Assembly: GCF_000009965.1 (NCBI RefSeq)
Contig: NC_006624.1
Location: 1,800,001 to 1,832,000, forward strand
Reading direction: 5' to 3'
DNA length: 32,000 nucleotides
Source of the DNA: Thermococcus kodakarensis KOD1
GTDB taxonomy: Archaea > Methanobacteriota_B > Thermococci > Thermococcales > Thermococcaceae
Notes under the pieces: generated by a model
What the model was told of the DNA's origin: nothing
What the model saw: only the letters and a program-made list of their open reading frames with translations
Database searches by the model: none
Made by a program: the position numbers and the translations under genes
Shown: piece by piece, positions 2,996 through 29,977 of the stretch
Numbering within the stretch: the stretch's first letter is position 1
Layout of the letters: every line of letters starts with the position of its first letter

Positions 2996-3004
2996 TTTTT
3001 TAAA
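2996..3004. promoter_or_regulatory. shared A/T element (TTTTTTAAA) in the 78-bp hypC/mobA divergent region; candidate TATA box for both directions
   Basis: It lies about 29 nt upstream of mobA ATG 3033 (leaderless-type spacing) and about 45 nt upstream of hypC ATG 2954. Confidence 0.45.
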
Positions 3005-3019
3005 CCAGGGGTTTAGAAC
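3003..3019 (-). promoter_or_regulatory. SurR-type box GTTCTAAACCCCTGGTT (GTTn3AACn5GTT)
   Basis: Exact match to the extended SurR consensus on the minus strand. It is upstream of the hypC TATA and lies between the TATA and the start of mobA. Confidence 0.6.
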
Positions 3020-3032
3020 CCCAAACTGTGTG

Positions 3033-3644
3033 ATGACTATGATTGGAGCAGTCTTGGCTGGAGGGAGGGGCAGACGCTTCGGCGGAGACAAGCTCCTATT
3101 CAGGATCAGCGGAAAGCCCCTCCTCCTCTACACCATTGAGAGGCTGGAGCAGGCGGAGAAAATAGACGAGATAGTCTTAGTTGCATCAAAGGAAAACGCG
3201 GAGAAGCTCAGGGATTTTGGGCACGATGTTGTGGTTGATGAGCTGATGATCGGGCCGATGGGTGGGATTTTCACCGCCCTGAGCCTCGGTGACGCCTTTG
3301 TTGTCGCCGGCGATATGCCCCTCCTCGTCCCGGAGTTCATAGACTTCATCGTCGAGCGCTTTGAAGAGGCCAAAAAGCCAGCCTGTGTGCCGAGGTGGAG
3401 CAACGGCTACCTTGAACCGCTCCACGCCGCTTACTCAAGTTCTTTCAGGGATTTTTTGGAGGAGAGGATAAAGTCCAGAAACTACGCTATAAACCAGGCT
3501 ATAAGGGAGAGCGACGCCTGTTACATCGAGATTGAAAAACTGCCAGAGGGCTGGAGGGAGAGCTTCTTCAACGTTAACACGAGGGAGGATTTAAGGAGGC
3601 TCACTCCACTGAGAACCCGAGACAATCCGGATACATTGAGATGA
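3033..3644 (+). CDS. mobA: molybdenum-cofactor guanylyltransferase-like protein (MobA family)
   Basis: [15 protein letters not shown] nucleotide-binding loop and the VVAGDMP motif. The start is ambiguous (GTG 3030, ATG 3033 or ATG 3039). Confidence 0.8.
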
Positions 3645-3680
3645 TTTGAGGATGGCTAAAACCAGAAGAGCACGTTGGTA

Positions 3681-3890
3681 TCAACCGCTATTCTTTCTCT
3701 CAAAGAAAGCCCTCCTCCTCGCCCCTATGTCCTTTGCGATCTCTTCAATGTCCTCATTGGTAAGCGTGGAGTTCTTTAAAATATTGTTGAGCTCAGCTAA
3801 TTCTCTGAGCCTTTCTTCCACCAGCTTGGCAAAGCCCCGTGCAATTCTTGGATCGATTCCTGCAGGGACGTGGATTGTTATCGTGCCCAT
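3681..3890 (-). CDS. small hypothetical protein (69 aa), possibly antitoxin/RHH-like
   Basis: MGTITIHVPAG... followed by helical, charged sequence. ATTTAAAA (3920-3927, minus strand) lies about 29 nt upstream of ATG 3890, which suggests its own promoter and a leaderless mRNA. Confidence 0.5.
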   Translation of the reverse strand: MGTITIHVPAGIDPRIARGFAKLVEERLRELAELNNILKNSTLTNEDIEEIAKDIGARRRAFFERKNSG

Positions 3891-3934
3891 CTTAACCACG
3901 ATCAAAAATTTTCACGGAGTTTTAAATAGCTTTC

Positions 3935-4411
3935 TTACTTGTTCTTCAGAATCTCCGCAATCAGCTCAGCCAGCCTCTCCGCCCTTTCCTTTATCAGTTC
4001 GCTCGGCTCCTCAAAGAGGCCCGTCGAACCCGGCTGACAGCCGATGAGGACTATATCGCTCCCCGTTTGCTCTTTAATATAGCTCGCCACAATCCTCAAA
4101 GGAAGCCCGTGGGTCGATACAGCTTCCCCGAGGGTTTTCAGCGGGTCGGCGATTATAAACTCCCCAATCTCACCCCCGAAGTGGATGGCATCAACGAAGA
4201 CCACCAAGTCTGGCTTAAAGGCCGCTATCTTACCGACGTAGCTCTCCGGCATCTCGCCGCAGTTCAGGATGAGAACATCTGGGGTCTTCACCAGCTCCTT
4301 CAGCCTCTCGGCGACGAGAACGCCGAAGGCGTCGTCCCCCCTCACGTCGTTTCCGATCCCGCAGATTACGATCCGCGTCTTCCCGGAGAAGACATCTTCA
4401 AGGACGCTCAT
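3935..4411 (-). CDS. hycI: hydrogenase maturation endopeptidase (HycI/HybD family, peptidase A31)
   Basis: 158 aa with GIGNDVRGDDAFG, VFVDA and STHGLPL motifs. The start is 3 nt after the PIN gene stop. Confidence 0.9.
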   Translation of the reverse strand: MSVLEDVFSGKTRIVICGIGNDVRGDDAFGVLVAERLKELVKTPDVLILNCGEMPESYVGKIAAFKPDLVVFVDAIHFGGEIGEFIIADPLKTLGEAVSTHGLPLRIVASYIKEQTGSDIVLIGCQPGSTGLFEEPSELIKERAERLAELIAEILKNK

Positions 4412-4414
4412 TAT

Positions 4415-4933
4415 TCAATACCCCCTGAAAATTCCTTTCCGGTACAGCTCAATGAATTCCAGCCCCCTGAGGATGTATACCTGAAAGTCTCCTATCTGAA
4501 GTATCTTTTCGTCGTTCCTCATGTCTAAGAGGTCTCGGTCGTACGTGATTATTGCATCCGCGCCGCTTTCGAGGGCGAGCTCAAGCCACTTGTTGTCGCT
4601 TTCATCTTGGCACAGTGACAGTCTCGTTTTGGGCTCAACAAACACGCTGATTTCTTTTATAAGCTTCAAGAGGATGGCTGGGTCTTGGAGTGGATTCCGC
4701 GGGGCAAAGCCCGAGCGAAGCCCCATTATCTTCGGGTGGGCGAACTTCTGCTCAACCTCTTCGAGCGCTTCCTTCGAGATGTAATTCACCACGGCCCTAT
4801 TAAGCATGAGGTTCAGGATAAACGCAACTGCGTTTTTCTCTGGATTCTTGCTGAGGAGAAAAGAAATCCACGCCGAAGTCTCTATCACAACTCTAACCCC
4901 ATCTCCTTCAGCCGCCTCTCGATTTTCTGCCAT
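4415..4933 (-). CDS. PIN-domain protein (PIN_3-like), putative toxin/RNase
   Basis: VRVVIETSAW (beta1, with Glu where the usual Asp sits) ... QDESDNKWLELALESGADAIITYDRDLL, the typical PIN_3 C-terminal signature. GAGGAGG lies 10 nt before ATG 4933. Confidence 0.75.
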   Translation of the reverse strand: MAENREAAEGDGVRVVIETSAWISFLLSKNPEKNAVAFILNLMLNRAVVNYISKEALEEVEQKFAHPKIMGLRSGFAPRNPLQDPAILLKLIKEISVFVEPKTRLSLCQDESDNKWLELALESGADAIITYDRDLLDMRNDEKILQIGDFQVYILRGLEFIELYRKGIFRGY

Positions 4934-5217
4934 TTTTGAATGTCCTCCTCGATTTCATTGAGAGCCTCTTCAAGCCCCTCGGGGGCATCCTCTGTTGGGA
5001 ACTCTACAGGGATTGATTCTGGAATTTGGGCTTCTTTTTCAGCCCTCTCAAGTTTCCCCATGTTCTCCTTCCACTCCATGTAACCGAGAAAGTCTTCAAC
5101 GGTCACACCCAGGGCCTCAGCCAGCTTAAGGACTACCTCAGAAACGAGCAATCTCTTGTCCTTGTCCTCCAGAAGTTTTTCAATGCTGTAGAGTTTGGGG
5201 TTCACGGCCTCGCTCAT
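4885..5217 (-). CDS. putative HTH antitoxin-like partner of the PIN protein (110 aa)
   Basis: LVSEVVLKLAEALGVTVEDFL resembles the C-terminal part of an XRE-type HTH, followed by an acidic tail. It overlaps the PIN gene by 49 nt. ATG 5217 was chosen over the track's TTG at 5265. Confidence 0.55.
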   Translation of the reverse strand: MSEAVNPKLYSIEKLLEDKDKRLLVSEVVLKLAEALGVTVEDFLGYMEWKENMGKLERAEKEAQIPESIPVEFPTEDAPEGLEEALNEIEEDIQKWQKIERRLKEMGLEL

Positions 5218-5242
5218 TGCATTAACGCGTACTCCCCAGGAG

Positions 5243-5250
5243 TATTTTAA
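5243..5250 (-). promoter_or_regulatory. TATA-like TTAAAATA 25 nt upstream of the HTH gene ATG
   Basis: It lies inside the 57-nt gap between the Mrp/MinD ATPase stop and ATG 5217, at leaderless-type spacing. Confidence 0.45.
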
Positions 5251-5274
5251 GCTTTCGAAATTCAAAAATGAAAA

Positions 5275-6021
5275 TCAAAGCCTCCCCGCCAGCTCCCTCA
5301 CCTTCCCGGCGAACTCCGTCTTCATTAGTTCTTCAACGTTCCCAACCTTCGCGTCGAGGTCGGGGTAGAATGGTATGCCGACCAGGTAGGGAACGCCGAA
5401 CTCCTCGGCGAGCTTTTCAACGTCCTTCTCGTCGTCGAGCTGCTCCGAACGGAGTTTCATGTTCTCAACGACGCCGATGACCTTGTGTCCTTCCTCTTTG
5501 AGGAGCTCGATGAGCTTCCTCACGACGTTGAGGGAGAGCTTTGAAGGTGTAGCGACAACGAGAAATTCGCCTCTCTTGAGGAAGCGGAGGACATCCAAGA
5601 GCTGGTCGCCAAGACCTGGCGGCATGTCTATGACGAGGTAGTCCAGCTCGTCCCAGCGGGTTATCGTGAGCAGCTCTATTAGCGCGTCGCTTATCTCCTT
5701 ACCGCGGAGCGGTGTAGGTCTGTCTTCCGTGTAATACGCGATAGTCATGAACTTTATCCCGTGAACAGTCGGCGGAACGACACCTCTGTCCTCCTCGGGG
5801 AACTCCTTGGGCTCAAAGCCGAGGATGACGTGGTCGCTGGCCCCGTGGAAGTCGAGGTCGAGGAGGCCGACCCTGTAGCCCTTCTCAGCCAGGACGAGCG
5901 CGAGAGTAGTTGAGACGAGGGACTTTCCAACACCGCCCTTTCCGCTGACGACCGGGATAATCCGCTTGACTCCCTCAAGCCTCGCGTTTATCGCTATCTC
6001 CCTCGGGTCTATCGCGTTCAT
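5275..6021 (-). CDS. Mrp/MinD-type P-loop ATPase acting as HypB substitute (Ni insertion partner of HypA)
   Basis: SGKGGVGKS deviant Walker A. No CxxC motif. ATGA overlap with the hypA stop. Thermococcales are known to use an Mrp/MinD ATPase in place of GTPase HypB. Confidence 0.9.
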   Translation of the reverse strand: MNAIDPREIAINARLEGVKRIIPVVSGKGGVGKSLVSTTLALVLAEKGYRVGLLDLDFHGASDHVILGFEPKEFPEEDRGVVPPTVHGIKFMTIAYYTEDRPTPLRGKEISDALIELLTITRWDELDYLVIDMPPGLGDQLLDVLRFLKRGEFLVVATPSKLSLNVVRKLIELLKEEGHKVIGVVENMKLRSEQLDDEKDVEKLAEEFGVPYLVGIPFYPDLDAKVGNVEELMKTEFAGKVRELAGRL

Positions 6022-6437
6022 GACCCTCCCTCCTTCTCGATCTTTATTCCAGCAACGTAAACTCCCCTTCCCTTGACGACCTCGAAATCATGACTGCCGC
6101 ACTTCGGGCAGGCGAGGAAGGCGTGGACGACCTCCGGGATGAAGTGGATGTCCTCCTTAATCCTCTCGTCGAACTTATCCTTTACCTCCTTGAGCTTCCA
6201 CTCATAGTTACAATTCCTGCACTTAAAGACGGCCTCTTCCTCGACGAACTCTATTTCAGCACCCTCAGCAATCGTCCCGGCGAAGAGCTGCTCCATCGCG
6301 AACTTCACGATGTCCTCCGCAACGTCCTGGAGTTCCCCAAGAACAACCCTAACCGCCTTCACCCTGCTTGCCCCTTCCCTTTGAGCATAATCTAAGACCG
6401 TCCTTACTATCGCATCGGCAAGCGCCCACTCGTGCAT
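6018..6437 (-). CDS. hypA: [NiFe]-hydrogenase nickel metallochaperone HypA
   Basis: MHEWALA N-terminal Ni site. CRNC...CPKC zinc site. GGTGA lies 5 nt before the ATG. Confidence 0.95.
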   Translation of the reverse strand: MHEWALADAIVRTVLDYAQREGASRVKAVRVVLGELQDVAEDIVKFAMEQLFAGTIAEGAEIEFVEEEAVFKCRNCNYEWKLKEVKDKFDERIKEDIHFIPEVVHAFLACPKCGSHDFEVVKGRGVYVAGIKIEKEGGS

Positions 6438-6482
6438 GGTATCACCGAGTTCCTATTGGAGTGCTACCTTAAAAAGGTCTGA

Positions 6483-6499
6483 GTTTTAAACCATCCGTT
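6483..6499 (+). promoter_or_regulatory. SurR-type box GTTTTAAACCATCCGTT (GTTn3AACn5GTT)
   Basis: Exact extended consensus. It lies immediately upstream (in the hypA direction) of CCTTTTTAAGG (6468-6478), the likely hypA TATA, and overlaps the only strong A/T element available to the divergent CDF gene. Confidence 0.6.
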
Positions 6500-6548
6500 T
6501 ACATAACAAAAATCTTTTGAACGAGTGAACGGAAATCGAAATGAGGGG

Positions 6549-7448
6549 ATGAAAGTGGCCCACCATCACCACGGCGAGCTTAAGGGCAGGATGCTGTTTT
6601 CCTTTGCCCTGAACATCGTGATAACCCTAGCCGAGGTCATCGGTGGTATCCTCTCCGGAAGTTTGGCCCTTCTCAGCGACTCCCTTCACAACTTCAGCGA
6701 TTCAATGAGTATCCTCGCGAGCTATCTCGCCATAAAGATAGGCGAGCGAGAGAAGAACGAGAAGTACACCTTCGGCTACAAGAGGGCTGAGATTTTGGTC
6801 GCGTTCGTTAATTCCGCTGTCCTGGTCGGTGTTGCGCTCTTCCTCCTCGTTGAGGCTTACAAGCGCTTTAAGAACCCAGAGCCAATAGACGGCCCTCTGA
6901 TGCTCGGGGTTGCTCTAATCGGCCTCTTCGCCAACTTAATCTCGGTTCTCCTGCTCCATGAGCACGCCCACGAGAGCATGAACGTCCGCTCCGCCTACCT
7001 GCATCTCCTGAGCGACACGCTCTCTTCGGTTGCGGTCGTGATAGGTGGAATCGCGATAATACGATGGGATGTTCTCTGGATCGATCCCCTCGTCACGGTT
7101 CTAATCTCGGTTTACATCCTCCGCGAGGGCTATGAGATACTGAAGGAGAGCGTGGAGGTGCTCATGGAAGCGGCTCCTGATTTAGATCTTGATGAGATAA
7201 AACGCGAAATCGAGAGTATTCCGGGTATCAGGAACGCCCATCACTTCCACGTATGGCGGATAGGGGAGAAGGAGATCCACTTTGAGTGTCACGTCGAAGT
7301 TAACGACATGCCGATAAGCGAGGCGCAGAGGTTAATAGACGAGATTGAGGAGAGGCTTAAGCGCTTCGGGATAACCCACGTGACGGTTCAGCTCGAGGCT
7401 GGGCGGTGTGAGGATAAAAACACGATCTGCGGTGAGAAAGGTGATTAG
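6549..7448 (+). CDS. cation diffusion facilitator (CDF) metal efflux transporter, CzcD/ZitB-like
   Basis: N-terminal HHHH; six TM segments; LLSDSLHNFSD and HLLSDTLSS metal-site motifs; a C-terminal cytoplasmic domain. The start is uncertain (GTG 6525 or ATG 6549). Confidence 0.85.
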   Translation: MKVAHHHHGELKGRMLFSFALNIVITLAEVIGGILSGSLALLSDSLHNFSDSMSILASYLAIKIGEREKNEKYTFGYKRAEILVAFVNSAVLVGVALFLLVEAYKRFKNPEPIDGPLMLGVALIGLFANLISVLLLHEHAHESMNVRSAYLHLLSDTLSSVAVVIGGIAIIRWDVLWIDPLVTVLISVYILREGYEILKESVEVLMEAAPDLDLDEIKREIESIPGIRNAHHFHVWRIGEKEIHFECHVEVNDMPISEAQRLIDEIEERLKRFGITHVTVQLEAGRCEDKNTICGEKGD

Positions 7449-7768
7449 GGTAGCAGTCCCAACATCCAGAGGTGGGCTTGAAGACAGAGTGCATGAGAGC
7501 CTCGTGAGGGCCGAGACCTTCACTCTGGTGGAGCTTAAGGATGGAGAAGTAAAAAGCGTGGAGATTGTCGAGAACCCCCTACCGAGAGGAGCCCTACGGA
7601 GCTGGTTCTAAGGTGGCCATGTTTCTGGTCAACCTGGGAGTGAACGTACTGCTGACCCCTATGGACTGCCCGAAGGGAAAGGCAATACTTGAGGCGGGGG
7701 GCGTTAAGATAATTAAAGTAAAATCCGGGGAAAATGTCAAAGACGTTCTAAACCTTCTCAAGGATTGA
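7441..7768 (+). pseudogene. NifB/NifX-type (FeMo-cofactor-binding domain family) small protein, split by a +1 frameshift at the C5 run 7575-7579
   Basis: Track ORFs 7408..7611 and 7565..7768 join into one domain (IRVAVPTS...EIVENP|YREEPYGAGSKVAMFL...) if one C is removed. The GTG 7441 start overlaps the CDF stop. Confidence 0.7.
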
Positions 7769-8174
7769 ACACGCTCTCAGCTCCGTTCGTGCTTTCTTCC
7801 TTCTTTTTCGTCAGGGGCTTTGTTATCTCAAAGGCCTTTCTTATGATCCCGTGCTCTATGACGAGCTTCTTAACGTACTCCTTTGGTGGGAACTCTATGG
7901 CGTTACATGGGCAGAGGATTGCACAAGTGTTGCAACCAACCATGCAGTTGTAGGGCCTCGCAACAACGGGCTTTCCCTCTTCGGTGTCCCAGTCGAAGAC
8001 CCTCCGTCCACAGGTTATAAAGCAAAGGCCACAGCGGGCGCAGACGCTGTAGTTTATCTTTGGATACCACTCTATCTCCTTTCTATCAACCCCCCACCAC
8101 GGAATAACGCTTAGGTCCTTAACCTCTCTCCCGAGAGCGTCCCTCCCGATGACGGGAGCCTTAACATCGGCCAT
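7758..8174 (-). CDS. 2x[4Fe-4S] ferredoxin-domain protein (138 aa)
   Basis: CARCGLCFITC and CMVGCNTCAILCPC cluster motifs. GAGGTG lies 6 nt before ATG 8174 (the track start at 8183 is a GTG). Confidence 0.8.
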   Translation of the reverse strand: MADVKAPVIGRDALGREVKDLSVIPWWGVDRKEIEWYPKINYSVCARCGLCFITCGRRVFDWDTEEGKPVVARPYNCMVGCNTCAILCPCNAIEFPPKEYVKKLVIEHGIIRKAFEITKPLTKKKEESTNGAESVFNP

Positions 8175-8233
8175 TTCACCCACCTCAATTTATGCTGAAT
8201 CTTTTTCATTTAAAATATTTTTCATATATCTAG

Positions 8234-8250
8234 GTTATCAACCAAGAGTT
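8234..8250 (+). promoter_or_regulatory. SurR-type box GTTATCAACCAAGAGTT (GTTn3AACn5GTT)
   Basis: Exact extended consensus 60 nt upstream of the ferredoxin-like ATG, directly upstream of its A/T-rich promoter DNA. Confidence 0.55.
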
Positions 8251-8399
8251 TTGGGCAGAAGTGTCCAGAAGCTTTGGATGTAGGCAAATGGAAGCTAGAG
8301 AAAACTCTTAAATAAAATGACGACAAAATAAAAGCAATCCAAACCGCTATGGGCATCCAGTTTTTCTTTTCTGCTCCGGTTTGGAGCGGAGGTGTCGTG

Positions 8400-10982
8400 A
8401 TGAAAAGAACCTACCGTGTTCTGGTTTTTATGTTGCTAGCCGGGTTAGTTCTCATAGGCGGATGCGTGGAGAACGGCCCCGTTTCCACTGGAGGGGGCCA
8501 GACGACCGAAACTGGAACGAGCGTAAGCACTTCCACTGATCATATAGGCGAGACAGACACTGGGACAGCAACCACAACCGAAACTGTTACTGAAACGGTC
8601 ACTCAAACCAATACTGAGACGGGCACGGGGACAGTTACGGAAACGCCGACGCCTAATGGGAGTGTCCAGTTCGACGAGGATGGATTGCCGATATGTACCG
8701 GGGACATGGACGAGGACCTTGGATGCGAGGACAACAAGACCATCGATGGGAGCGGCCCCGGCTTCTCCCTGCCGGAGGATATTCTCCTCAACATAACACT
8801 CGAGCCCGTTCTCCAGCTGGTGCCCCTAAACCCGCCGAACCTCACTTACGTTGGCCCTCTGAGCTCTATGGCAAGCGTTCCGGGCGAGGAGGACGTTATC
8901 GAGTGGGTTGGTCTGGCCACGTCATCAACGGAACCCGGGAAAAGCGTGACTCTAACGCTCCACTTCAAGAACGAGAGCCTCCTTAGTCAGTACATACATG
9001 TACCCTTCATTATGGATCCCGTAACGGGGAAGAAGGTAACGTACCAGCCAACCGTGATGAAGCTGAGCGAGGGAGACGAGTTCGGGAAGCGCTGGGAGGT
9101 CCACCTATACGGCGGGATAAGCGGAGGGAGCTTCACGCTCTACGAGATTACCGGAAACGGCCCTCTAAAGCTCCAGGAGGGGACGGTTGAGCTTAAGGGC
9201 TCCTCTGCGAGCTTCATCCTCGAGAACTTCTCCTCAATCTTTCCGGAGAAGACCTACATGAGCATGGAGGCCGTTCCGATGAGCTCCAAGTTTTCTACCT
9301 TCACCTACCCATCGAAGGAGAGCTTCGTGATAAAGGCCAAAGAGGGCAGGATAGACTACTACACTAGCGCCTTCTTTGGTATAGAGGATGAGCCAGTGAG
9401 CATCAGGACCACGAGCAGCGAGTACGACCTGATTTTTGAGTTCTACGTAACGAAGGACACCTGGCTGTCATTCACAGGGTTTATTGATAGCAGTGACGAC
9501 GGAATGGCCGACTGGATACTTGAAGTTAGAGATAGAAACTACGAGCTGAAAGATGAATCCGGGAGCCTTTTCAGAGATGGAAACGTGACCGTTGAGAACA
9601 CCCAGCTGGGAAAGAAGGTCAGTCTCAGGATAGAGAACTTCTACAGCCTCGTCCCGTGGAGGAAGTTCCGCTTCTGGATGACGAACTGGATCGAGCGCTT
9701 TCCAGCAAAGAGCAACCTCTGGGTTGACGCAAGCGAGGGAATGAGCATCGAGAAGGACGTTGACCTCTACCTGGTGGCTGTTGTGGAGGACGTCTTTGTA
9801 AAGGAGAACGGGGACTATGCGGAGGGGGAAATACAGCTCTCCTCGTGGGCCTACGGAATGACCTGGCCCGATGGAAAGGCCTGGCCGATAAACCACAGCT
9901 CCATCTACACCTTCGGCTATCCAATCGGCCACTGGGTCGAGGCTGAGGACAACAGCAGACTTTTGTATCACGACGATAGGATGACGGGCTCTCTCAACAT
10001 GCCCTTCGTGAACGGCTATCCGATCCTCGCGATGCCCATTGACGAGGCGAAGAAGTACAAGATCATAGTCCTCGAAACAGCGGGCTGGGATAGAGACGAG
10101 CCCGGGAAATACGTCACCAAAACGGTAGGCTACCTAACGGACTTCGCCGTGGGAATGGCCACCGGGGAGATTGGGACGGTGGCGGACTACGCCTACAAAG
10201 GAGCTACATGGATGAACTGGCTGGCGACGGGCCAGAGCGGGGACGAGCTCTGGGGGAGCGTCTTCAACTGGCTTGCTGGAGCGGAACCCGACAAGGTCGG
10301 AAACGCCGTCTACGTGCTCCACCCCAACGAGGCCGACTTCACCAGGGGCTACCGCGTGACCGCAGAATCGAGGGACGGCAACATGCGCGTAACCTACGTC
10401 ATTTACGAGGTGGAGGTGCCGAGGCTTCTCAAGTACGACAACCTCAAGGCGGAGCTCCTAGAGGTGGACTTCACGAAGGACACCGAGATAGGGGACGACG
10501 AGTATTACTACTATGCGAGGGCCTGCGCTGGCTTTGAGAGCCTCGGTGAAACTGAGGGGCTCCACAACGTCGAGGTTAACGTTTTAGCTCCAGCCGGCTA
10601 CGCCTACTCCTATCCGGTGAGCTCAAGCGAGGGAGCGACCTTCAACCGCCAGCCCTGCTCGGCATCAAAGCTCTTCCACAAGTACCTCAGCGGGAACGAG
10701 CTCTCCCTGAAGCCCGGCTTGGCCATGCTGGAGCGCGACGACGCTAGGGTTCCATTCCTCTACATGGAGTACTCAGGCTGGGAAGAAGATGCCGGAAAGT
10801 GGGGCAACGACGACGACCCGATGGGTAACGTTGGGATAACGATAGTCTTCGATGACGACTACTTCGACTGGGACGTTACATCAGGAATCCCGAGCAAGTA
10901 CTGGTCGCTGGACTTTGACGTCTGCGGCGTCTCAGGTGGCTGCTCTAAGGTGTGGTTCGGGCTGGACGTGAGGCGCGAGTGA
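8400..10982 (+). CDS. large secreted, probably lipid-anchored and glycosylated protein (860 aa), function unknown
   Basis: MKRTYRVLVFMLLAGLVLIGGC is a signal peptide with a lipobox-like GGC. A roughly 60-aa Thr/Glu/Gly linker and many N-x-S/T sequons follow. GGAGGTG lies before ATG 8400. No catalytic motif recognised. Confidence 0.8.
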   Translation: MKRTYRVLVFMLLAGLVLIGGCVENGPVSTGGGQTTETGTSVSTSTDHIGETDTGTATTTETVTETVTQTNTETGTGTVTETPTPNGSVQFDEDGLPICTGDMDEDLGCEDNKTIDGSGPGFSLPEDILLNITLEPVLQLVPLNPPNLTYVGPLSSMASVPGEEDVIEWVGLATSSTEPGKSVTLTLHFKNESLLSQYIHVPFIMDPVTGKKVTYQPTVMKLSEGDEFGKRWEVHLYGGISGGSFTLYEITGNGPLKLQEGTVELKGSSASFILENFSSIFPEKTYMSMEAVPMSSKFSTFTYPSKESFVIKAKEGRIDYYTSAFFGIEDEPVSIRTTSSEYDLIFEFYVTKDTWLSFTGFIDSSDDGMADWILEVRDRNYELKDESGSLFRDGNVTVENTQLGKKVSLRIENFYSLVPWRKFRFWMTNWIERFPAKSNLWVDASEGMSIEKDVDLYLVAVVEDVFVKENGDYAEGEIQLSSWAYGMTWPDGKAWPINHSSIYTFGYPIGHWVEAEDNSRLLYHDDRMTGSLNMPFVNGYPILAMPIDEAKKYKIIVLETAGWDRDEPGKYVTKTVGYLTDFAVGMATGEIGTVADYAYKGATWMNWLATGQSGDELWGSVFNWLAGAEPDKVGNAVYVLHPNEADFTRGYRVTAESRDGNMRVTYVIYEVEVPRLLKYDNLKAELLEVDFTKDTEIGDDEYYYYARACAGFESLGETEGLHNVEVNVLAPAGYAYSYPVSSSEGATFNRQPCSASKLFHKYLSGNELSLKPGLAMLERDDARVPFLYMEYSGWEEDAGKWGNDDDPMGNVGITIVFDDDYFDWDVTSGIPSKYWSLDFDVCGVSGGCSKVWFGLDVRRE

Positions 10983-10991
10983 GCGTTTCTC

Positions 10992-10996
10992 TTTTT
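10992..10996 (+). terminator. oligo-T (T5) after the 860-aa gene
   Basis: TTCTCTTTTTCTC starts 4 nt after the stop codon. Confidence 0.45.
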
Positions 10997-11107
10997 CTCA
11001 ATTCTTCCACTTCAAGCGTGCTCCCTAAAATATGAGAGCATCTGTTTTAACATTTAAAAAACTTTTTAAATGAGCGTCATTTCATTTGGCATGACAACAA
11101 AAATGAG

Positions 11108-11851
11108 ATGAGCCTAATGGACTACATAGCAGTCGGCATCATAGCTTTCATCCTGAGCGTCATCTTCTCCATCGGCGGAGTCGGAAGCGCGATAGCAATA
11201 GTCCCGACTATGATGTGGCTCGGAATACCCCTCATGGTTGCGAAGCCCACTGGCCTTTTCATAAACACCCTCTCGATGCTTTCGGCGACGATCAAGAACA
11301 TCAAGCACGGCAAGCTCGACCACCGCTTCGGTCTCCCGATACTGGTTATGGCGACGATTTTTGCTCCCCTCGGGGCCTACTCGGGTAAGTTCATACCCAA
11401 AGAATACGTCCTCTGGATCTTCATAATATTTCTCCTGTACTCTGGCACTATGATGATCTTCTTCAAGCCGAGGCCGAGGGACGGAGATGGGAACCATATC
11501 GTAGAGGGCTCGCTCATCGGAGGCTTGGCAGGGTTCCTCGGCGGACTGCTCGGCGTCGGCGGAGGGGGTATAATAAGCCCGACGCTCATAATGCTCGGCT
11601 ACGAGCCGAAAAAAGTGGCCGCGACAACGGCTCTGGTGGTCTTCTTCTCATCCCTGAGCGGTTTCCTTACTTACTGGGGTATGGGCGCTCTCGACTGGAA
11701 GCTCCTAGGGGTTGTTTCAATCTCCGCTATAACGGGCGGCTGGCTCGGAACACATCTCATGCACTTCAAGATGAGTTCCGAGCAGGTAAAGAAGGTAATC
11801 GGCGTTATTCTCTACCTGATAGCGCTGAAGATGGTTCTCAAGGTTCTCTGA
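11108..11851 (+). CDS. TauE/SafE (DUF81) family anion-exporter-like membrane protein
   Basis: About 8 TM segments with Gly-rich motifs in both halves (SIGGVGSA and GVGGGGIISP), typical of the family. Confidence 0.8.
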   Translation: MSLMDYIAVGIIAFILSVIFSIGGVGSAIAIVPTMMWLGIPLMVAKPTGLFINTLSMLSATIKNIKHGKLDHRFGLPILVMATIFAPLGAYSGKFIPKEYVLWIFIIFLLYSGTMMIFFKPRPRDGDGNHIVEGSLIGGLAGFLGGLLGVGGGGIISPTLIMLGYEPKKVAATTALVVFFSSLSGFLTYWGMGALDWKLLGVVSISAITGGWLGTHLMHFKMSSEQVKKVIGVILYLIALKMVLKVL

Positions 11852-11881
11852 TTATTTTTGATTAGGGAGAAAAATGGAAAA

Positions 11882-12874
11882 TCACGAGGAAAAGTCGTGG
11901 AGAAGCGTTTTAACCCCCGTGACCAGCCACAGGGCCAGAAGGAACCAGTAGAGTGCAAAACCGAAGTCCACCATTGCACCTATCCCGAGGCTCGTCCCAA
12001 CGTTGTAGGTCGCGCTCACGTAGGCCCCAAGGGGGAAGATGAAGCCCCACCAGGCGAGGCTGTAGGGGAGATGCAGGTTTCTGAGGTAGTGGAGCGTCAT
12101 CAGGATAGCCATGATGAGCCACCAGAGTCCGAAGCCCCAGAGGATAAAGGCAAAGCCCTTGAAAGCCTCTCCTGCAACGGGCAGTACCTTAACGAGGTTT
12201 AACAGCGCCACTGCACCCGCTCCAAGCGGTCCGAGGTTTATCCAGACTGCCGGCGCCATCATGGGCGGGAGGAGCTCGTGGGTTATGAAGCGCCTCATCA
12301 CTATGGCGAAGAGGGCCAGATAGAGGAAGAAGCCCGCGCCGAAGCCGAAGTAGTTGAACGCAATAAAAACCTCTCTCCACGTTTGGGACTGCGGGAGGAA
12401 CGGCAGGGCCGTGAGAGGTATCACGATAAGCCCAACCGGCGGTATAAACCACGCTGGCGTTATCGTCTTTACATCTACCCCCTCACCCACGAAAAACAGG
12501 TAGGGTATCAGGAGGGCGAAGACCACGACGAGAATGCTCCCAAGAATCCAGAGCGGGAGGGCTATTTCCCTGTGGCCGACCATTGCGAGGTTTATCGCCA
12601 CTATCGTCATCGCTATCGGCATCGTTCCGTAGAAGTGGCTCGTTACGGGGTGGTAGAGGTCTCTCTTCGCCTCAGAGGGATACTTGATCCACCTCAGCAG
12701 CCAGGGTATTAGGAGAATGAAGAAGACCGCGGCGTTCAAATACACCAGTGCCTTCGAAAACGTGCCAAGCGCTGGAAGCTTCGAGGAGTATGCCTTACTG
12801 ACCAGCGCCAGGGCTCCCGTTCCCATAACGCTCGCAAACCAGCTCGGTGCAAAATCTCTCACGTTTATTCTCAT
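11882..12874 (-). CDS. TDT-family (TehA/Mae1/SLAC1-like) anion transporter or channel
   Basis: N-terminal FAPSWFASVMGTGALA signature and 10 predicted TM segments. AGGTGA lies 6 nt before the ATG. Confidence 0.85.
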   Translation of the reverse strand: MRINVRDFAPSWFASVMGTGALALVSKAYSSKLPALGTFSKALVYLNAAVFFILLIPWLLRWIKYPSEAKRDLYHPVTSHFYGTMPIAMTIVAINLAMVGHREIALPLWILGSILVVVFALLIPYLFFVGEGVDVKTITPAWFIPPVGLIVIPLTALPFLPQSQTWREVFIAFNYFGFGAGFFLYLALFAIVMRRFITHELLPPMMAPAVWINLGPLGAGAVALLNLVKVLPVAGEAFKGFAFILWGFGLWWLIMAILMTLHYLRNLHLPYSLAWWGFIFPLGAYVSATYNVGTSLGIGAMVDFGFALYWFLLALWLVTGVKTLLHDFSS

Positions 12875-12924
12875 TTTTCTTCACCTGAAGAAATCGCCAT
12901 ATTTTTGTTTTTAAGCGTTTTTTG

Positions 12925-12941
12925 AACGTTCAGTTGAGAAC
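12925..12941 (-). promoter_or_regulatory. SurR-type box GTTCTCAACTGAACGTT (GTTn3AACn5GTT), overlapping the perfect palindrome TGAACGTTCA (12923-12932)
   Basis: Exact extended consensus on the minus strand, 51 nt upstream of the TDT-family ATG and directly upstream of GCTTAAAAAC. Confidence 0.55.
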
Positions 12942-13001: not shown

Positions 13002-13391
13002 TCAGTGCTCGCAGTGCCCTCCCTTTTCCTTCTCCCGCTCTATCTTCTCCTTCCAGTGGGGGTCAACCTCAAGAACCTGCTCGATGAAGGCCTTAACTAC
13101 ATCGCCGACCTTTCCGTAGGCGCCGGTTACGACCGTTATTCCAAACTGGTTGAAGTATTCCATCGCCCGTCTTCCCATCCCGTAGACGATGACGACCTCG
13201 GCCCCGTGTTCCTTTATGAAGTTGGGCAAATCACCTGGGCCGTGCTCCTCAAAGGGGACAGGAACCACCTCAACGCCCCTTATCTCGCCGTCCTCCACGT
13301 CCACGAAGGCGAAGTACCTGGCCCTTCCAAAGTGTCCGCTCATCGGACTTTCCAGTCCAAGGTCTTCATCTACAGGAAGCGCGATTCTCAT
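13002..13391 (-). CDS. NifB/NifX-type (FeMo-cofactor-binding domain family) small protein with a His/Cys tail (129 aa)
   Basis: MRIALPVDE...SGHFGRARYFAFVDVEDGEI...GPGDLPNFIKEHGAEVVIVYGMGRRA follows the family pattern. The C-terminus reads GGHCEH. Confidence 0.8.
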   Translation of the reverse strand: MRIALPVDEDLGLESPMSGHFGRARYFAFVDVEDGEIRGVEVVPVPFEEHGPGDLPNFIKEHGAEVVIVYGMGRRAMEYFNQFGITVVTGAYGKVGDVVKAFIEQVLEVDPHWKEKIEREKEKGGHCEH

Positions 13392-13436
13392 GCTATCACC
13401 ACCACAACCATGAATCATTTTTCAAATATAAGCTTT

Positions 13437-13504: not shown

Positions 13505-13924
13505 TCACGGATCTGCCGGCTTTATTATCTCAACTTCTCCCTTTATCTTCTCCGCCCCGACGGTGTTGAAGACCGTCCCGTACTTCTCGGCCAGCTCCTT
13601 AACGCGCATAATCTTTTTCTCGTCCTCGTTAGTGAAGACGGTGATCTTGTAGGTTATCTCCTTCAGCTGGGGCTCGTCAAGCCCGCGCCAGCCCCTGACC
13701 TCTACCTCAAAGCCCTTCACGTCGAGACGCATCTTCTTGATCAGCCTGCCCCAGTTGACAGTCAGACAGCCACCTATAGCGGCCAAGAGGTATTCCGTCG
13801 GGTTTGGTCCTTTGTTGTGGCCGTCCGTGTTCGTGTCTATGTGAAAGGTAAACTCCCTCACCTTCGCTTCACTTCCGACGTTGCCGTCCCACTTCAGGTG
13901 TGCTGAATACTCAAGGCGCTTCAT
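13505..13924 (-). CDS. OsmC/Ohr-family peroxiredoxin-like protein (139 aa)
   Basis: GPNPTEYLLAAIGGC is the active-site Cys region. I prefer ATG 13924 (MKRLEYSAHLKWDG) because TTTTAAAA (13955-13962) sits about 30 nt upstream. Alternatives are 13954 and 14008. Confidence 0.75.
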   Translation of the reverse strand: MKRLEYSAHLKWDGNVGSEAKVREFTFHIDTNTDGHNKGPNPTEYLLAAIGGCLTVNWGRLIKKMRLDVKGFEVEVRGWRGLDEPQLKEITYKITVFTNEDEKKIMRVKELAEKYGTVFNTVGAEKIKGEVEIIKPADP

Positions 13925-14006
13925 GAAATCACCATTGAAAGTTATCCCCGCCATTTTTAAAACCCAGTACAAACCAAAGGTTAAGAACACTAATTTTCCA
14001 AAAAGC

Positions 14007-14014
14007 ATTTAAAT
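14007..14014. promoter_or_regulatory. palindromic A/T element ATTTAAAT, candidate TATA between OsmC and the ABC importer
   Basis: It lies in the divergent intergenic region. The upstream ATG of the track's OsmC ORF falls inside it. Confidence 0.4.
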
Positions 14015-14097
14015 CGTGTTACTATATTGGGTTTCGGTGACACAATGAAGAACACGCCCGATGATCGTATGGGAATTGTGCTCCAGTACATAGGGAA

Positions 14098-14112
14098 ACT
14101 CCGAGTCGGAGT
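14098..14112. promoter_or_regulatory. perfect 7-1-7 inverted repeat ACTCCGA-G-TCGGAGT in the leader of the iron-complex ABC operon
   Basis: It extends imperfectly to 12-1-12 (14093-14117) and lies 81 nt upstream of the binding-protein ATG. Confidence 0.5.
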
Positions 14113-14192
14113 GTTCCACCCCTTGAAAACTCACCAGTTCTATCCCCGGAAAATCCCAGGGGGGATAACCAAACTCGAATGGAGGGCCTGAA

Positions 14193-15326
14193 ATGAAGAG
14201 ATTGATGGCAGTTCTTCTGGTGCTGTTCGTAGTTCTTGCAGGCGGTTGCGTGGGTACTTCCTCAAATGGGGCAGAGAAAGCCTCACAGCAGTACATAACC
14301 GTAACAGACTCCCTGGGCAGAATCGTCCAGGTTCCTGTGAATGTCCAGAAGGTCGTTGCCATCGGGCCAGGAGCCCTTAGGCTCATCGTCTACCTCAACG
14401 CGAGCAATATGGTCGTGGGAGTGGAGGACTTCGAGAAGAAGTACTCCTACGGAAGGCCCTACATCATCGCTCACCCGGAGCTGAAGAACCTCCCGAGCAT
14501 AGGCCCGGGAGGCCCTGGAAAGCTTCCCAACCTCGAAGCACTCGCCAACGTCTCCCCTGACGTGATAATAGCGGTATTCATAAGCAAGGAGCAGGCCGAT
14601 GAGATTCAGGAGAAGACTGGGATTCCAGTCGTTGTCCTCAGCTACGGTGCGAGGGGAGGAATGAAAGGTTTCAACGATCCTCAGCTCATAGAATCAATAC
14701 AGCTGGCAGGTAAAATACTGCACAGGGAAAAGCGGGCAAAGGAACTCGTTGACTTCTTAAACTCCGTCCAGGAAGACCTGCAGAAGAGGATGAAGGGTGA
14801 GAAGAGCCCAAGGGTTTACGTAGGTGGGATAGGTTACAAGGGTGCCCACGGAATAGAGAGCACCTACGGCGACTACGCCCCCTTCGAAGTGCTGAACCTC
14901 ACCAACATAGCCTCTTCCCTCGGCCCCGGCTGGAAGACCGTTGACAAGGAGTGGCTCCTCAAGGAAGACCCGGACTACCTCTTCATCGATGAAGGCGGCT
15001 TGAAAATAATCCTCGACGACTATAGGAAGAACCCGGACTTCTACAGGGCACTGAGCGCCCTAAAAGAGGGCAGGGTGTACGGACTGCTCCCGTTCAACTT
15101 CTACAACACCAACCTCGGAACGGCTATAGCAGATACCTACTACATTGGAAAAGTTCTCTACCCGGAGCGCTTCAGCGACGTTGATCCAGTGAAGAAAGCG
15201 GACGAAATCTATGCATTCCTCGTTGGAAAGCCGGTCTATGAAACCCTCAAGGAGCAGTTCGGCGGCTTCGGAAAGATAGACTTCGAGAACGGAACCGTTA
15301 AGTACTCACTGCCAACTTCACCGTGA
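14193..15326 (+). CDS. ABC importer substrate-binding lipoprotein, Fe3+-siderophore/cobalamin (FecB/BtuF-like) family
   Basis: MKRLMAVLLVLFVVLAGGC signal/lipobox. Overall resemblance to the family, and it is followed by FecCD- and FepC-type genes. GGAGGG lies 6 nt before the ATG. Confidence 0.88.
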   Translation: MKRLMAVLLVLFVVLAGGCVGTSSNGAEKASQQYITVTDSLGRIVQVPVNVQKVVAIGPGALRLIVYLNASNMVVGVEDFEKKYSYGRPYIIAHPELKNLPSIGPGGPGKLPNLEALANVSPDVIIAVFISKEQADEIQEKTGIPVVVLSYGARGGMKGFNDPQLIESIQLAGKILHREKRAKELVDFLNSVQEDLQKRMKGEKSPRVYVGGIGYKGAHGIESTYGDYAPFEVLNLTNIASSLGPGWKTVDKEWLLKEDPDYLFIDEGGLKIILDDYRKNPDFYRALSALKEGRVYGLLPFNFYNTNLGTAIADTYYIGKVLYPERFSDVDPVKKADEIYAFLVGKPVYETLKEQFGGFGKIDFENGTVKYSLPTSP

Positions 15327-16366
15327 TGCCCATGGACTACGAGGGATACATCGCCAGAAAGTTCCTCATCGGCCTCTTTTTACTTCTTCTCACACTCCTG
15401 GTTAGCCTGTACTCTCTGTCCCACGGTTCGTACTCACTGTCCACGGGTGATGTCATAAACACGCTCCTTGGAAGGGAGGGCGGAAACGCTTACCTCATAG
15501 TCTGGAAGGTTCGCCTGCCGCGTATAGTTGCCGCCCTTTTCGTTGGTGCTTCCCTCGCCGTCTCCGGCGCGGTAATGCAGGGGTTCTTGAGAAACCCCCT
15601 GGCGAGTCCGTTCACAATGGGAGTCTCCCACGGGGCTATGTTCGGTGCCTCTCTCGCCATAATCCTCGGTGCCGGCTATGCGGAGAGCACCGGTAGAATC
15701 TCGCTCGACAACCCGTATGCAGTGGTCATCTTCGCGTTCGCTGGTGCCATGGCTGCTGTGGGCGTGATTCTTTTGCTGGCAAAGCTCAAGGGACTTTCCC
15801 CAGAGGCAATAATCCTCGCCGGAGTAGCTATGAGCTCCCTCTTTGTGGCACTAACGACCTTCATCCAGTACTTTGCGGATGAACTCCAGCTAGCGGCGAT
15901 GGTCTACTGGAGCTTCGGCGACCTTGGAAGAGCAACCTGGAGGGAGGACGTTATACTGCTCCTGGTCTTTGCACCGGTGTTTGCATACTTCATCGTGAAG
16001 AGGTGGGATTTGAACGCCTCCGCAGTTGGAGAGGAAGTGGCCAAAAGCGTTGGTGTGGAGGTAGAGAGGGTTCGCCTCGTATCCACTTTCCTTGCCGCCC
16101 TGATAACTGCCATCAGTGTGGCCTTCGTTGGGGTTATAGGGTTTGTTGGCTTGATAGCTCCACATCTTATCAGGCTCATAGCGGGGGGAGACTACAGGTT
16201 TCTGATACCCCTCTCGGCCCTCGCAGGTGCTTTACTCCTCGTCACGGCGGACACCGTTGCGAGGCTTGTACTTGCCCCCACTGTACTCCCCGTTGGGATA
16301 GTGACATCATTCCTTGGAGCTCCGGCCTTCATATACCTCCTCGTCAGGATGGAGGGACGAAGATGA
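15326..16366 (+). CDS. FecCD/BtuC-family ABC permease
   Basis: About 9-10 TM segments; RLPRIVAALFVGASLAVSGAVMQ motif. The ATG overlaps the upstream stop (TGATG). Confidence 0.9.
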   Translation: MPMDYEGYIARKFLIGLFLLLLTLLVSLYSLSHGSYSLSTGDVINTLLGREGGNAYLIVWKVRLPRIVAALFVGASLAVSGAVMQGFLRNPLASPFTMGVSHGAMFGASLAIILGAGYAESTGRISLDNPYAVVIFAFAGAMAAVGVILLLAKLKGLSPEAIILAGVAMSSLFVALTTFIQYFADELQLAAMVYWSFGDLGRATWREDVILLLVFAPVFAYFIVKRWDLNASAVGEEVAKSVGVEVERVRLVSTFLAALITAISVAFVGVIGFVGLIAPHLIRLIAGGDYRFLIPLSALAGALLLVTADTVARLVLAPTVLPVGIVTSFLGAPAFIYLLVRMEGRR

Positions 16367-17109
16367 CCGCTGTTGAGGCCAGAAACCTTCACTACTCCTA
16401 CAACGGCACTGAAGTCCTGAAGGGCATCAACCTGAAGATTGAGGATGGGGAGTTTGTCGCAATACTCGGCCCGAACGGCGCCGGGAAGAGCACCCTGCTG
16501 AAGTGTCTCTCTGGAATCCTCAGGTGCAATGGTGTTTATATCTCAGGACGGCCAATTGGGGAGTACTCTAGGAACGAACTAGCGAGGCTTGTGGCCTATA
16601 TCCCGCAGAGAACGGAACCGGGTTTTATGACCGTGTTCGATACAGTTCTGCTTGGTAGAAGACCCTACATGGGATTGAGGCCCTCGAAGAGGGATGTAGA
16701 GGTCGTTAAAAACGCACTGAAAAAGCTGGGGATAGATCACCTCGCCTTAAGGCCCACCAGGGGGCTGAGCGGTGGCGAACTTCAAAAGGTCGGCATAGCG
16801 CGCGCCCTGGCACAGGAGCCTGAGATTTTTATGTTTGACGAGCCAACGAACAACCTTGACATCAGGAGCCAGCTTGAGGTCATGAAGCTTGCGCGCGAGC
16901 TCTCTTCTGGGGGCAAAACCGTTATCATGGTCATGCACGAGATCAACCTCGCCATCCGCTTTGCGGAGAGGTTCGTCTTCATTTCAGAGGGACGGGTTGT
17001 TGCGGACGGTGGCCGTGAGATCCTGAAGCCTTCATTGTTCAGGGAGGTTTACGGAACGGAGGTCGAAATCGGGGAGGTGCACGGGATTCCGGTTGTTGTC
17101 CCCCTCTAA
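16363..17109 (+). CDS. ABC ATP-binding protein (FepC/FecE/BtuD-like)
   Basis: GPNGAGKST, LSGGELQK and IFMFDEPT motifs. ATGA overlap with the permease stop. The track ORF start at 16003 is an out-of-context extension. Confidence 0.92.
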   Translation: MTAVEARNLHYSYNGTEVLKGINLKIEDGEFVAILGPNGAGKSTLLKCLSGILRCNGVYISGRPIGEYSRNELARLVAYIPQRTEPGFMTVFDTVLLGRRPYMGLRPSKRDVEVVKNALKKLGIDHLALRPTRGLSGGELQKVGIARALAQEPEIFMFDEPTNNLDIRSQLEVMKLARELSSGGKTVIMVMHEINLAIRFAERFVFISEGRVVADGGREILKPSLFREVYGTEVEIGEVHGIPVVVPL

Positions 17110-26864: not shown

Positions 26865-26926
26865 GACCGATGATGGCAACAGGGTAGCTACCGAAGTTGA
26901 TGTGGAAGCCGTTCCAGTCTGAGGTC
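26865..26926 (+). ncRNA. candidate box C/D sRNA (62 nt) with degenerate internal boxes
   Basis: Layout is GACC-G-AUGAUGG (C) / 14 nt / CCGA (D') / AGUUG / AUGUGGA (C') / 12 nt / CUGA (D) - GGUC. There is a 4-bp terminal stem and it has its own TATA. It fills the intergenic gap exactly. Confidence 0.55.
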
Positions 26927-29922: not shown

Positions 29923-29977
29923 GGTCAGGGCCGATTAGGTCATCACTTCTCAGCCACCTACCCTCACATCATCCCCT
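29921..29977 (-). ncRNA. box C/D sRNA (57 nt), double guide
   Basis: On the minus strand the layout is AGGG-G-AUGAUGU (C) / GAGGGUAGGUGG (12 nt) / CUGA (D') / GAA / GUGAUGA (C') / CCUAAUCGGCC (11 nt) / CUGA (D) - CCCU. There is a 4-bp terminal stem. It starts 7 nt after the signal peptidase stop. Confidence 0.8.

Follow-up and report, generated by a model that had tools for sequence, protein, structure and literature searches.

The stretch analysed here, 32,000 nt of the Thermococcus kodakarensis KOD1 chromosome (NC_006624.1, positions 1,800,001 to 1,832,000; hereafter the window, in whose own numbering all positions are given), spans TK1999 to about TK203x and carries, clustered within 11 kb, five exact copies of GTTN3AACN5GTT, the extended recognition sequence of the redox- and sulfur-responsive regulator SurR of the Thermococcales. 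According to a gene map built from Pfam assignments, the genes beside these five boxes include the [NiFe]-hydrogenase maturation genes hypC-hypD and hypA-hypB-hycI, the gene of ferredoxin 3 (Fd-3), a TehA/SLAC1-family anion transporter gene, an OsmC-family gene and an iron-type ABC transporter operon. Exact-sequence look-up led to proteins of T. kodakarensis KOD1, with HypC as BAD86190 (TK2001), HypA as BAD86197 (TK2008), a cation-efflux (CDF) transporter as BAD86198 (TK2009), ‘ferredoxin 3’ as BAD86201 (TK2012), the TehA-like protein as BAD86204 (TK2015, annotated as a ‘C4-dicarboxylate transporter’) and the OsmC family protein as BAD86206 (TK2017), while the HypD protein proved identical (100% over 372 residues) to PDB 2z1d. 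The TK locus tags were worked out from the accession offset and agree with the published designations of TK2012 as Fd-3 and of TK2021 as an ‘ATPase near Fe-transport operon’ (PMC6401487).

Scanning both strands of the whole window with the pattern GTTNNNAACNNNNNGTT located box 1 at 3003-3019 (-), box 2 at 6483-6499 (+), box 3 at 8234-8250 (+), box 4 at 12925-12941 (-) and box 5 at 13972-13988 (-). A sequence-only reading of the same DNA had listed the first four, with coordinates and strands that were all correct, and had assigned them to a hypC, a hypA, a ferredoxin-like and a TehA-like gene, in agreement with the Pfam families found here (HypC, HypA, a 4Fe-4S protein and SLAC1/TehA). Its count of four was too low; the fifth box was probably overlooked because the longest open reading frame (ORF) of the OsmC gene, 13505-14008, spans it. 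Five matches compare with a mean of 0.16 in 100 dinucleotide-preserving shuffles of the window, of which none reached five and the richest held two. In the curated gene map, intergenic DNA accounts for 3,075 nt (9.6% of the window) and contains all five boxes, against 0.03 expected from its base composition (Poisson P ≈ 2 × 10−10), and the 28.9 kb of coding DNA contains none against 0.17 expected, so that the earlier claim of a non-coding position extends to the fifth box as well. The boxes occupy 5 of about 20 substantial intergenic regions, and in three cases (boxes 1, 2 and 5) the region holds divergent promoters. With their flanking bases, boxes 1 and 4 each make up a near double palindrome, TTTN3AAC-N5-GTTN3AAC, and over 46 Thermococci sites there was an additional preference for C at position 10 and for G at position 14.

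Comparison loci were obtained by a HypA scan with one genome per species, comprising 29 Thermococci (L001-L029), 7 DHVE2/Thermoplasmata (L030-L036) and 44 bacteria and other archaea; the best HypA match among the scanned genomes was 95%, T. kodakarensis itself not being one of them. The window and the Thermococci loci together (406 kb) held 42 exact motifs against about 3 expected, roughly a 13-fold excess, although every comparison locus was retrieved by way of hypA or OsmC and some are near-duplicates of one another, so that the counts are neither independent nor genome-wide. At least 32 of these 42 motifs were intergenic, in the 9.75% of the DNA that a rough ORF caller left between genes, and several of the motifs it placed in ‘coding’ DNA fell in over-extended ORFs. 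The other loci from the same query (691 kb) contained 5 motifs with about 5 expected, which is the chance level. The contrast between coding and intergenic density that the sequence-only reading had proposed as a check thus came out as predicted in the window and in the biased 406-kb Thermococci sample, which is short of the genome-wide scale envisaged.

The layout of the five promoters is common to all of them. When TATA-like elements were assigned by eye, reading in the direction of the minus-strand gene, each box was followed 7-18 nt downstream by such an element, which ended 28-33 nt before the start codon; the A/T-rich TATA region noted earlier downstream of the boxes is indeed present at each, and the distances of 49, 46, 60 and 51 nt given for boxes 1-4 are right as coordinate differences to the ATG codons at 2954, 6437, 8174 and 12874. 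In T. kodakarensis, the median distance to the transcription start site is 23 bp for TATA and 33 bp for the B recognition element (BRE) (PMC4247193), and the boxes would therefore lie upstream of the putative BRE/TATA, abutting it in four cases. A SurR site upstream of TATA is associated with activation and a site downstream of TATA with repression (PMC12162507, PMC12401011).

Box 1, GTTCTAAACCCCTGGTT, has the same direction as hypC and is found 49 nt from ATG 2954, within a near double palindrome over 2997-3019, TTTTTAAAC-CAGGG-GTTTAGAAC. The hypC gene (TK2001, 2727-2954, -; Pfam HupF_HypC, 1.7e-30) and hypD (TK2000, 1609-2727, -; Pfam HypD, 4.6e-138) are presumed to form an operon (1609-2954, -) driven from this box. 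The TATA-like element of the hypC promoter, CTATAAGA (2985-2992, -), stands 10 nt from the box and ends 30 nt before the ATG; it is preceded by a BRE-like A-run (2996-3001) and aligns with CCATAAAAAG and GCTAAATATG in orthologues. An exact box was present 46-49 nt upstream of hypC in all three Thermococci orthologues (L001, L010 and L011) and in neither of the two hypC promoters in DHVE2/Thermoplasmata loci. In the same three Thermococci loci hypF follows 3′ of hypD and has a box of its own 50 nt before its ATG. In these hypF promoters (L001 15819-15855, L010 13082-13118, L011 6531-6567) the long box is preceded, at a distance of 9 nt, by a short GTTN3AAC site, so that three to four half-sites follow one another, on which SurR may bind cooperatively.

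Box 2, GTTTTAAACCATCCGTT, is oriented opposite to hypA and lies 46 nt from ATG 6437, within the 111-nt divergent region between hypA and the gene of the CDF transporter (6549-7448, +), from whose ATG it is separated by 49 nt. The TATA box of the hypA promoter, TTTTTAAG (6468-6475, -), is 7 nt from box 2 and ends 30 nt before the ATG. The genes downstream, hypA (TK2008, 6018-6437, -; Pfam HypA), an Mrp-type hypB (TK2007, 5275-6021, -; Pfam ParA/NUBPL), a 126-aa ORF (4885-5265, -), a PIN-domain ORF (4415-4933, -; Pfam PIN_3) and hycI (TK2004, 3935-4411, -; Pfam HycI), are contiguous or overlapping and presumably constitute one operon (3935-6437, -). A box with no more than one mismatch was recognised in 22 of the 29 Thermococci hypA promoters (8 exact, 14 with one mismatch) and in none of the 7 DHVE2/Thermoplasmata promoters. 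All 22 boxes shared the inverted orientation and a distance of 44-49 nt to the ATG and stood beside a conserved TTTTTAAGG or TTTATAAAC, and the hypA box was kept despite differing upstream neighbour genes. With regard to the operon itself, the PIN_3-domain ORF and the 126-aa ORF that overlaps it, located between hypB and hycI, had tblastn relatives in L001 only, hycI following hypB directly in the other Thermococci, and the pair looks like a two-gene toxin-antitoxin-like insertion.

Box 3, GTTATCAACCAAGAGTT, is likewise oriented opposite to its gene, that of Fd-3 (TK2012, 7758-8174, -; 138 aa with nine cysteines), at 60 nt from ATG 8174. A BRE-like GAAAAAT and the TATA element ATTTTAAAT together occupy 8208-8223 (-), with TATA (8208-8216) 17 nt from box 3 and ending 33 nt before the ATG, and GAAAAAT-ATTTTAAAT is conserved in L004, L013 and L102. 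All six orthologous Fd-3 promoters (L004, L013, L015, L016, L024 and L102) contained an exact box 50-59 nt upstream. TK2012 transcripts decrease about sixfold within 20 min of sulfur addition (PMC4247193), Fd-3 RNA and protein are undetectable in the presence of elemental sulfur (S0), the protein co-purifies with the membrane-bound hydrogenase, and a TK2012 deletion strain does not grow without S0 (PMC6401487). Full-length box 3 probably gives SurR a direct route to TK2012 activation through a predicted site in the gene's own promoter. The first of these studies also describes an antisense RNA near TK2012 that is induced by sulfur and whose promoter has a putative SurR site (PMC4247193). The sole SurR-type site near TK2012 other than box 3 is a short palindromic one, GTTCTAAAC at 7745-7753, 5 nt past the stop codon of Fd-3, and this candidate site may be the one that belongs to the antisense promoter. 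As a conserved element GTTCTAAAC was rejected, being absent from six orthologous loci.

Several further features of the Fd-3 region were observed. The distal half-site of the Fd-3 box runs, immediately upstream of the box, into GTCCAGAAC, a second near-palindrome (L004, L013 and L102; about 8251-8275 in the window), which in L004 and L013 forms an inverted repeat, CTGGAC-N6-GTCCAG, that is only partly kept in T. kodakarensis. Two overlapping short ORFs on the plus strand (7408-7611 and 7565-7768), presumably TK2010/TK2011, resemble one NifX / Nitro_FeMo-Co-like gene split by a frameshift; the latter of the two runs convergently with the Fd-3 gene, whose 3′ end it overlaps. On the other side, the gene of an 877-aa secreted protein (8397-10982, +), with a lipoprotein-like signal peptide and a Thr-rich linker, is inserted between the genes of Fd-3 and TauE (11108-11851, +), which adjoin in L004 and L013; this protein gave no Pfam match and no tblastn relative in 36 archaeal loci.

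Box 4, GTTCTCAACTGAACGTT, runs in the same direction as the TehA-like gene (TK2015, 11882-12874, -; Pfam SLAC1, 1.5e-75), 51 nt from ATG 12874, with its near double palindrome over 12919-12941. The TATA-like element CTTAAAAAC (12907-12915, -) is 9 nt from the box and ends 32 nt before the ATG, and TTTAAAT occupies the equivalent place in the TehA-like promoters of L010 and L013. The box was exact in two of five orthologous promoters (L010 and L013, at 49 nt), reduced to its core in L004 and absent from L015 and L016; the orthologues that keep it share only about 60% identity with the protein of T. kodakarensis.

Box 5, GTTCTTAACCTTTGGTT, is situated between the divergent OsmC gene (TK2017, 13505-13924, -; Pfam, 3.9e-21) and the iron-type ABC transporter operon (TK2018 onward, 14193-17109, +; Pfam Peripla_BP_2, FecCD and ABC_tran), 48 nt from ATG 13924, which is the OsmC start provided with a ribosome-binding site. 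TATA-like elements are present on both sides: TTTTAAAAAT (13953-13962, -) faces OsmC, 9 nt from the box and ending 28 nt before ATG 13924, and ATTTAAAT (14007-14014, +) faces the ABC operon, 18 nt from the box and accompanied by an A-run (14000-14004). None of about 23 orthologous OsmC promoters (the metagenome scan and L013) carried the box. The promoters of homologous binding-protein genes could be aligned with the box 5 region, and there L007 showed an exact box, L003 one with a single mismatch and L012 none. OsmC was down-weighted as the target relative to the ABC-transporter promoter, since its orthologous promoters carry a different conserved element; box 5 appears at least as likely to serve the iron-type transporter operon as OsmC, and of the five boxes it is the one whose function is least certain.

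The different element of the OsmC promoters in other Thermococci (L081-L094 and L013) reads TATAAAAG-N2-TTTCGAACG(T/C)TAAGAT and is located 50-75 nt upstream of the start codon and downstream of a TATA box. A different regulator may use it as its operator, and the T. kodakarensis OsmC promoter lacks it and has the SurR-type box instead. On the transporter side, an ATG at 14045 with a GGTGA ribosome-binding site follows ATTTAAAT by 30 nt and opens a 48-codon ORF (14045-14192, +), which fills the approximately 150 nt between ATTTAAAT and the binding-protein ATG 14193. In L007 and L003 the binding-protein ORF begins at the ATG homologous to 14045, and L012 has a 6-codon remnant; the 48-codon ORF could be a leader peptide or long 5′ untranslated region, or else a decayed N-terminus.

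The motif is thus conserved at orthologous promoters for boxes 1-3, partly for box 4, and for box 5 only via the ABC-transporter promoter. We read the five boxes as predicted activation-type operators of SurR, which is TK1086 in T. kodakarensis (PMC4247193) and is encoded outside the window. This assignment, already made for four of them in the sequence-only reading, is supported by the enrichment in Thermococci, the phylogenetic footprints, the presence of SurR in the host, the sulfur response of TK2012 and the published activation geometry. For boxes 1-3, the probability that reduced SurR binds when S0 is absent and switches on the promoters next to them is put at about 0.8. Box 4 would probably work in the same way at the TehA-like promoter, with distinctly less assurance, and the corresponding role of box 5 at its adjacent promoter or promoters is proposed tentatively, a little below even odds.

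The most serious alternative is that the boxes at hypC, hypA and Fd-3 are operators, and that boxes 4 and 5 are lineage-specific matches with little or no regulatory effect. The patchy record of box 4 and the empty OsmC promoters described above favour this explanation and count against a function of all five boxes, and in the literature consulted neither TehA-like nor OsmC proteins have a documented role in hydrogen (H2) or S0 metabolism. However, 3 kb of intergenic DNA would contain so much as a single exact match by chance with a probability of about 0.03, box 4 is retained across quite diverged TehA-like orthologues, box 5 aligns with the box of the homologous binding-protein promoter in L007 and L003, and both boxes have the same TATA spacing as the hyp promoters; the explanation is considered unlikely, though it deserves to be kept in mind.

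It is less probable still that the boxes mainly repress promoters on the opposite strand, namely those of mobA (3033-3644, +) at box 1, of the CDF transporter at box 2 and of a plus-strand transcript at box 3, with the link to the hyp and Fd-3 genes being incidental. A gap of 13 nt separates the end of box 1 from the mobA start codon, which puts the box downstream of any mobA TATA, in the published repression geometry (PMC12162507); box 2 is about as close to the CDF gene as to hypA, and the antisense RNA reported near TK2012 would fit as well. At the same time, box distance and orientation are kept upstream of the hypA, hypC and Fd-3 orthologues even where the neighbours differ, the orientation being gene-specific and conserved, whereas mobA orthologues not beside hypC, and CDF genes paired with OsmC, have no box. 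The boxes track hypC, hypA and Fd-3 and not their neighbours, and a reading in which boxes 1 and 2 chiefly serve mobA and the CDF transporter was therefore rejected. At box 3, moreover, the purine-rich BRE-like run is on the Fd-3 side of TATA. Box 1 might conceivably be used in both senses, activating one side and repressing the other as in surR/pdo.

Binding of the 17-mers by another factor, e.g., another ArsR-type protein, or a role as a generic upstream promoter element is very improbable. Thermococcales do encode several ArsR-type regulators (PMC6981617), and the assignment of the 17-mers to SurR rests on sequence. Nevertheless, a generic element would hardly be confined to 5 of some 20 intergenic regions, the genes served form a coherent set of hydrogenase maturation and hydrogenase ferredoxin functions, the motif is the published SurR consensus, and its taxonomic range in the sample (Thermococci, to the exclusion of DHVE2 and bacteria) matches that of SurR. 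Chance occurrence in A/T-rich intergenic DNA, conceivable for a short, A/T-leaning motif with nine fixed bases, is effectively refuted by the intergenic excess, by the shuffles and by the position and orientation conserved elsewhere.

Several further points, in addition to the incomplete retention of boxes 4 and 5 and the biased sampling of the comparison loci, weigh against the proposal that SurR activates these promoters. A recognisable box is absent from 7 of the 29 Thermococci hypA promoters, and the 5′ untranslated regions implied by the TATA elements, placed by eye, would be only about 5-10 nt long. In Palaeococcus pacificus, hydrogenase-maturation genes were reported to be up-regulated rather than down-regulated with S0 (PMC6981617). 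Jager et al. (2014) proposed that TK2012 is controlled indirectly, via the antisense RNA, and not by direct activation (PMC4247193). A literature search that did not include the primary SurR papers found no binding, footprint, chromatin immunoprecipitation (ChIP) or surR-mutant data for the five boxes; the search for a ChIP-sequencing or regulon study of SurR in T. kodakarensis yielded nothing usable, and none of the literature found dealt with the response of TK2015, TK2017 or TK2018 to sulfur or SurR.

In favour of the proposal are data on related species. The hydrogenase-maturation genes of Pyrococcus furiosus are cited as SurR targets that are strongly down in the primary S0 response (PMC4463584), and the HypB-type ATPase, HycI, HypE and HypF proteins of Thermococcus onnurineus are lower on sulfur (PMC4463584). 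By analogy with these two species, the hyp genes of T. kodakarensis would be expected to respond to sulfur and SurR.

Further features complete the map of the window. Besides a NifX-like gene (13002-13418, -), these are the C/D-box snoRNAs sR22 (26866-26924, +; 84.5 bits) and sR36 (29923-29976, -; 75.6 bits), both situated in intergenic gaps. Apart from these two, the Rfam scan of the window gave no RNA family, and none in the five box-bearing intergenic regions, and a tRNA search of the window found none.

The proposed sequence of events is as follows. In the absence of S0, reduced SurR would be bound at each GTTN3AACN5GTT box and, from a position abutting BRE/TATA or 10 nt upstream of it, would help to recruit the basal transcription machinery. 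SurR would thereby switch on hypC-hypD, the hypA-hypB-hycI operon and the gene of Fd-3, the electron donor of the membrane-bound hydrogenase, and probably also the TehA-like transporter and one or both of the promoters flanking box 5. When S0 is present, the CxxC motif of SurR would be oxidised, the protein would leave the DNA, and these promoters would be shut off along with the hydrogenase operons. In this way the [NiFe] maturation machinery and the hydrogenase ferredoxin would be produced in step with the hydrogenases themselves. From the arrangement described above we infer both that SurR binds the five sites and in which direction it acts on each promoter.

Nothing conceptually new about the action of SurR follows from this proposal, which describes an expected part of the known hydrogen/sulfur switch. 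The motif, the regulator, the activation geometry, the hyp genes as targets (in P. furiosus) and a link between SurR and TK2012 are already published. What may be new is the placement of boxes at TK2001 and TK2008, the conserved direct box at TK2012, the candidates at TK2015 and TK2017/TK2018 and the clustering of all of these within 11 kb. It is possible, at slightly less than even chances, that the SurR regulon reaches TK2015 and TK2017/TK2018 and, jointly, that Fd-3 is activated by SurR directly and not only via the antisense RNA; if this is true, these promoters would form, with hypCD and hypAB-hycI, an 11-kb ‘hydrogen-mode’ island of five SurR-controlled promoters. One switch would then govern the maturation machinery (HypCD and HypA/HypB/HycI) and the dedicated ferredoxin of the membrane-bound hydrogenase, with Fd-3 probably having a direct SurR activation site and the anion and iron transporters perhaps being co-regulated. 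T. kodakarensis is a main chassis for archaeal biohydrogen engineering, and knowing which promoters share the sulfur-sensitive switch would help in redesigning its H2 production or in producing hydrogenases where the medium contains sulfur.

The closest counterparts are the SurR operators of P. furiosus (mbh1, hydB1 and hyp, activated; pdo, mbx/mbs and nsr, repressed), which have the same GTTN3AAC(N5GTT) sequence and which likewise lie just upstream of BRE/TATA at H2-production genes (PMC12162507, PMC12401011, PMC4463584). The expected logic is also the same, namely bound and active without S0 and released on CxxC oxidation; the T. kodakarensis boxes differ in being known from sequence and in that three of them are situated in divergent promoter regions. 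In T. kodakarensis itself, SurR sites were reportedly described by Hidese in 2017 at the ferredoxin:NADP oxidoreductase genes. The SurR sites already described in this organism share regulator and motif with the boxes of the window, and TK2012 had been tied to SurR and S0 repression (PMC4247193). The putative site of Jager et al. (2014) is on the antisense-RNA promoter, whereas box 3 is upstream of the TK2012 promoter itself, as it is in all six orthologues. In silico SurR maps of Thermococcus barophilus and Thermococcus piezophilus show the same long and short motifs 11-140 bp upstream of the starts of electron-flow genes (PMC12162507 Table 2; PMC8595942 Table 2). The long motif occurs there 52 or 49 bp upstream of surR, akin to the 46-60 nt found here; those tables comprise hydrogenases, Mbs, Nfn, surR and pdo, without the hyp, ferredoxin 3, TehA-like or iron-transporter promoters. 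Among other archaeal regulators, Ptr2 of Methanocaldococcus jannaschii and TFB-RF1 of P. furiosus are activators that bind directly upstream of BRE, although they belong to other protein families and recognise other motifs. Their operators likewise abut BRE/TATA on the upstream side, a position that allows recruitment of TBP or TFB, and it is a recruitment of this kind that we infer for SurR at the boxes described here.

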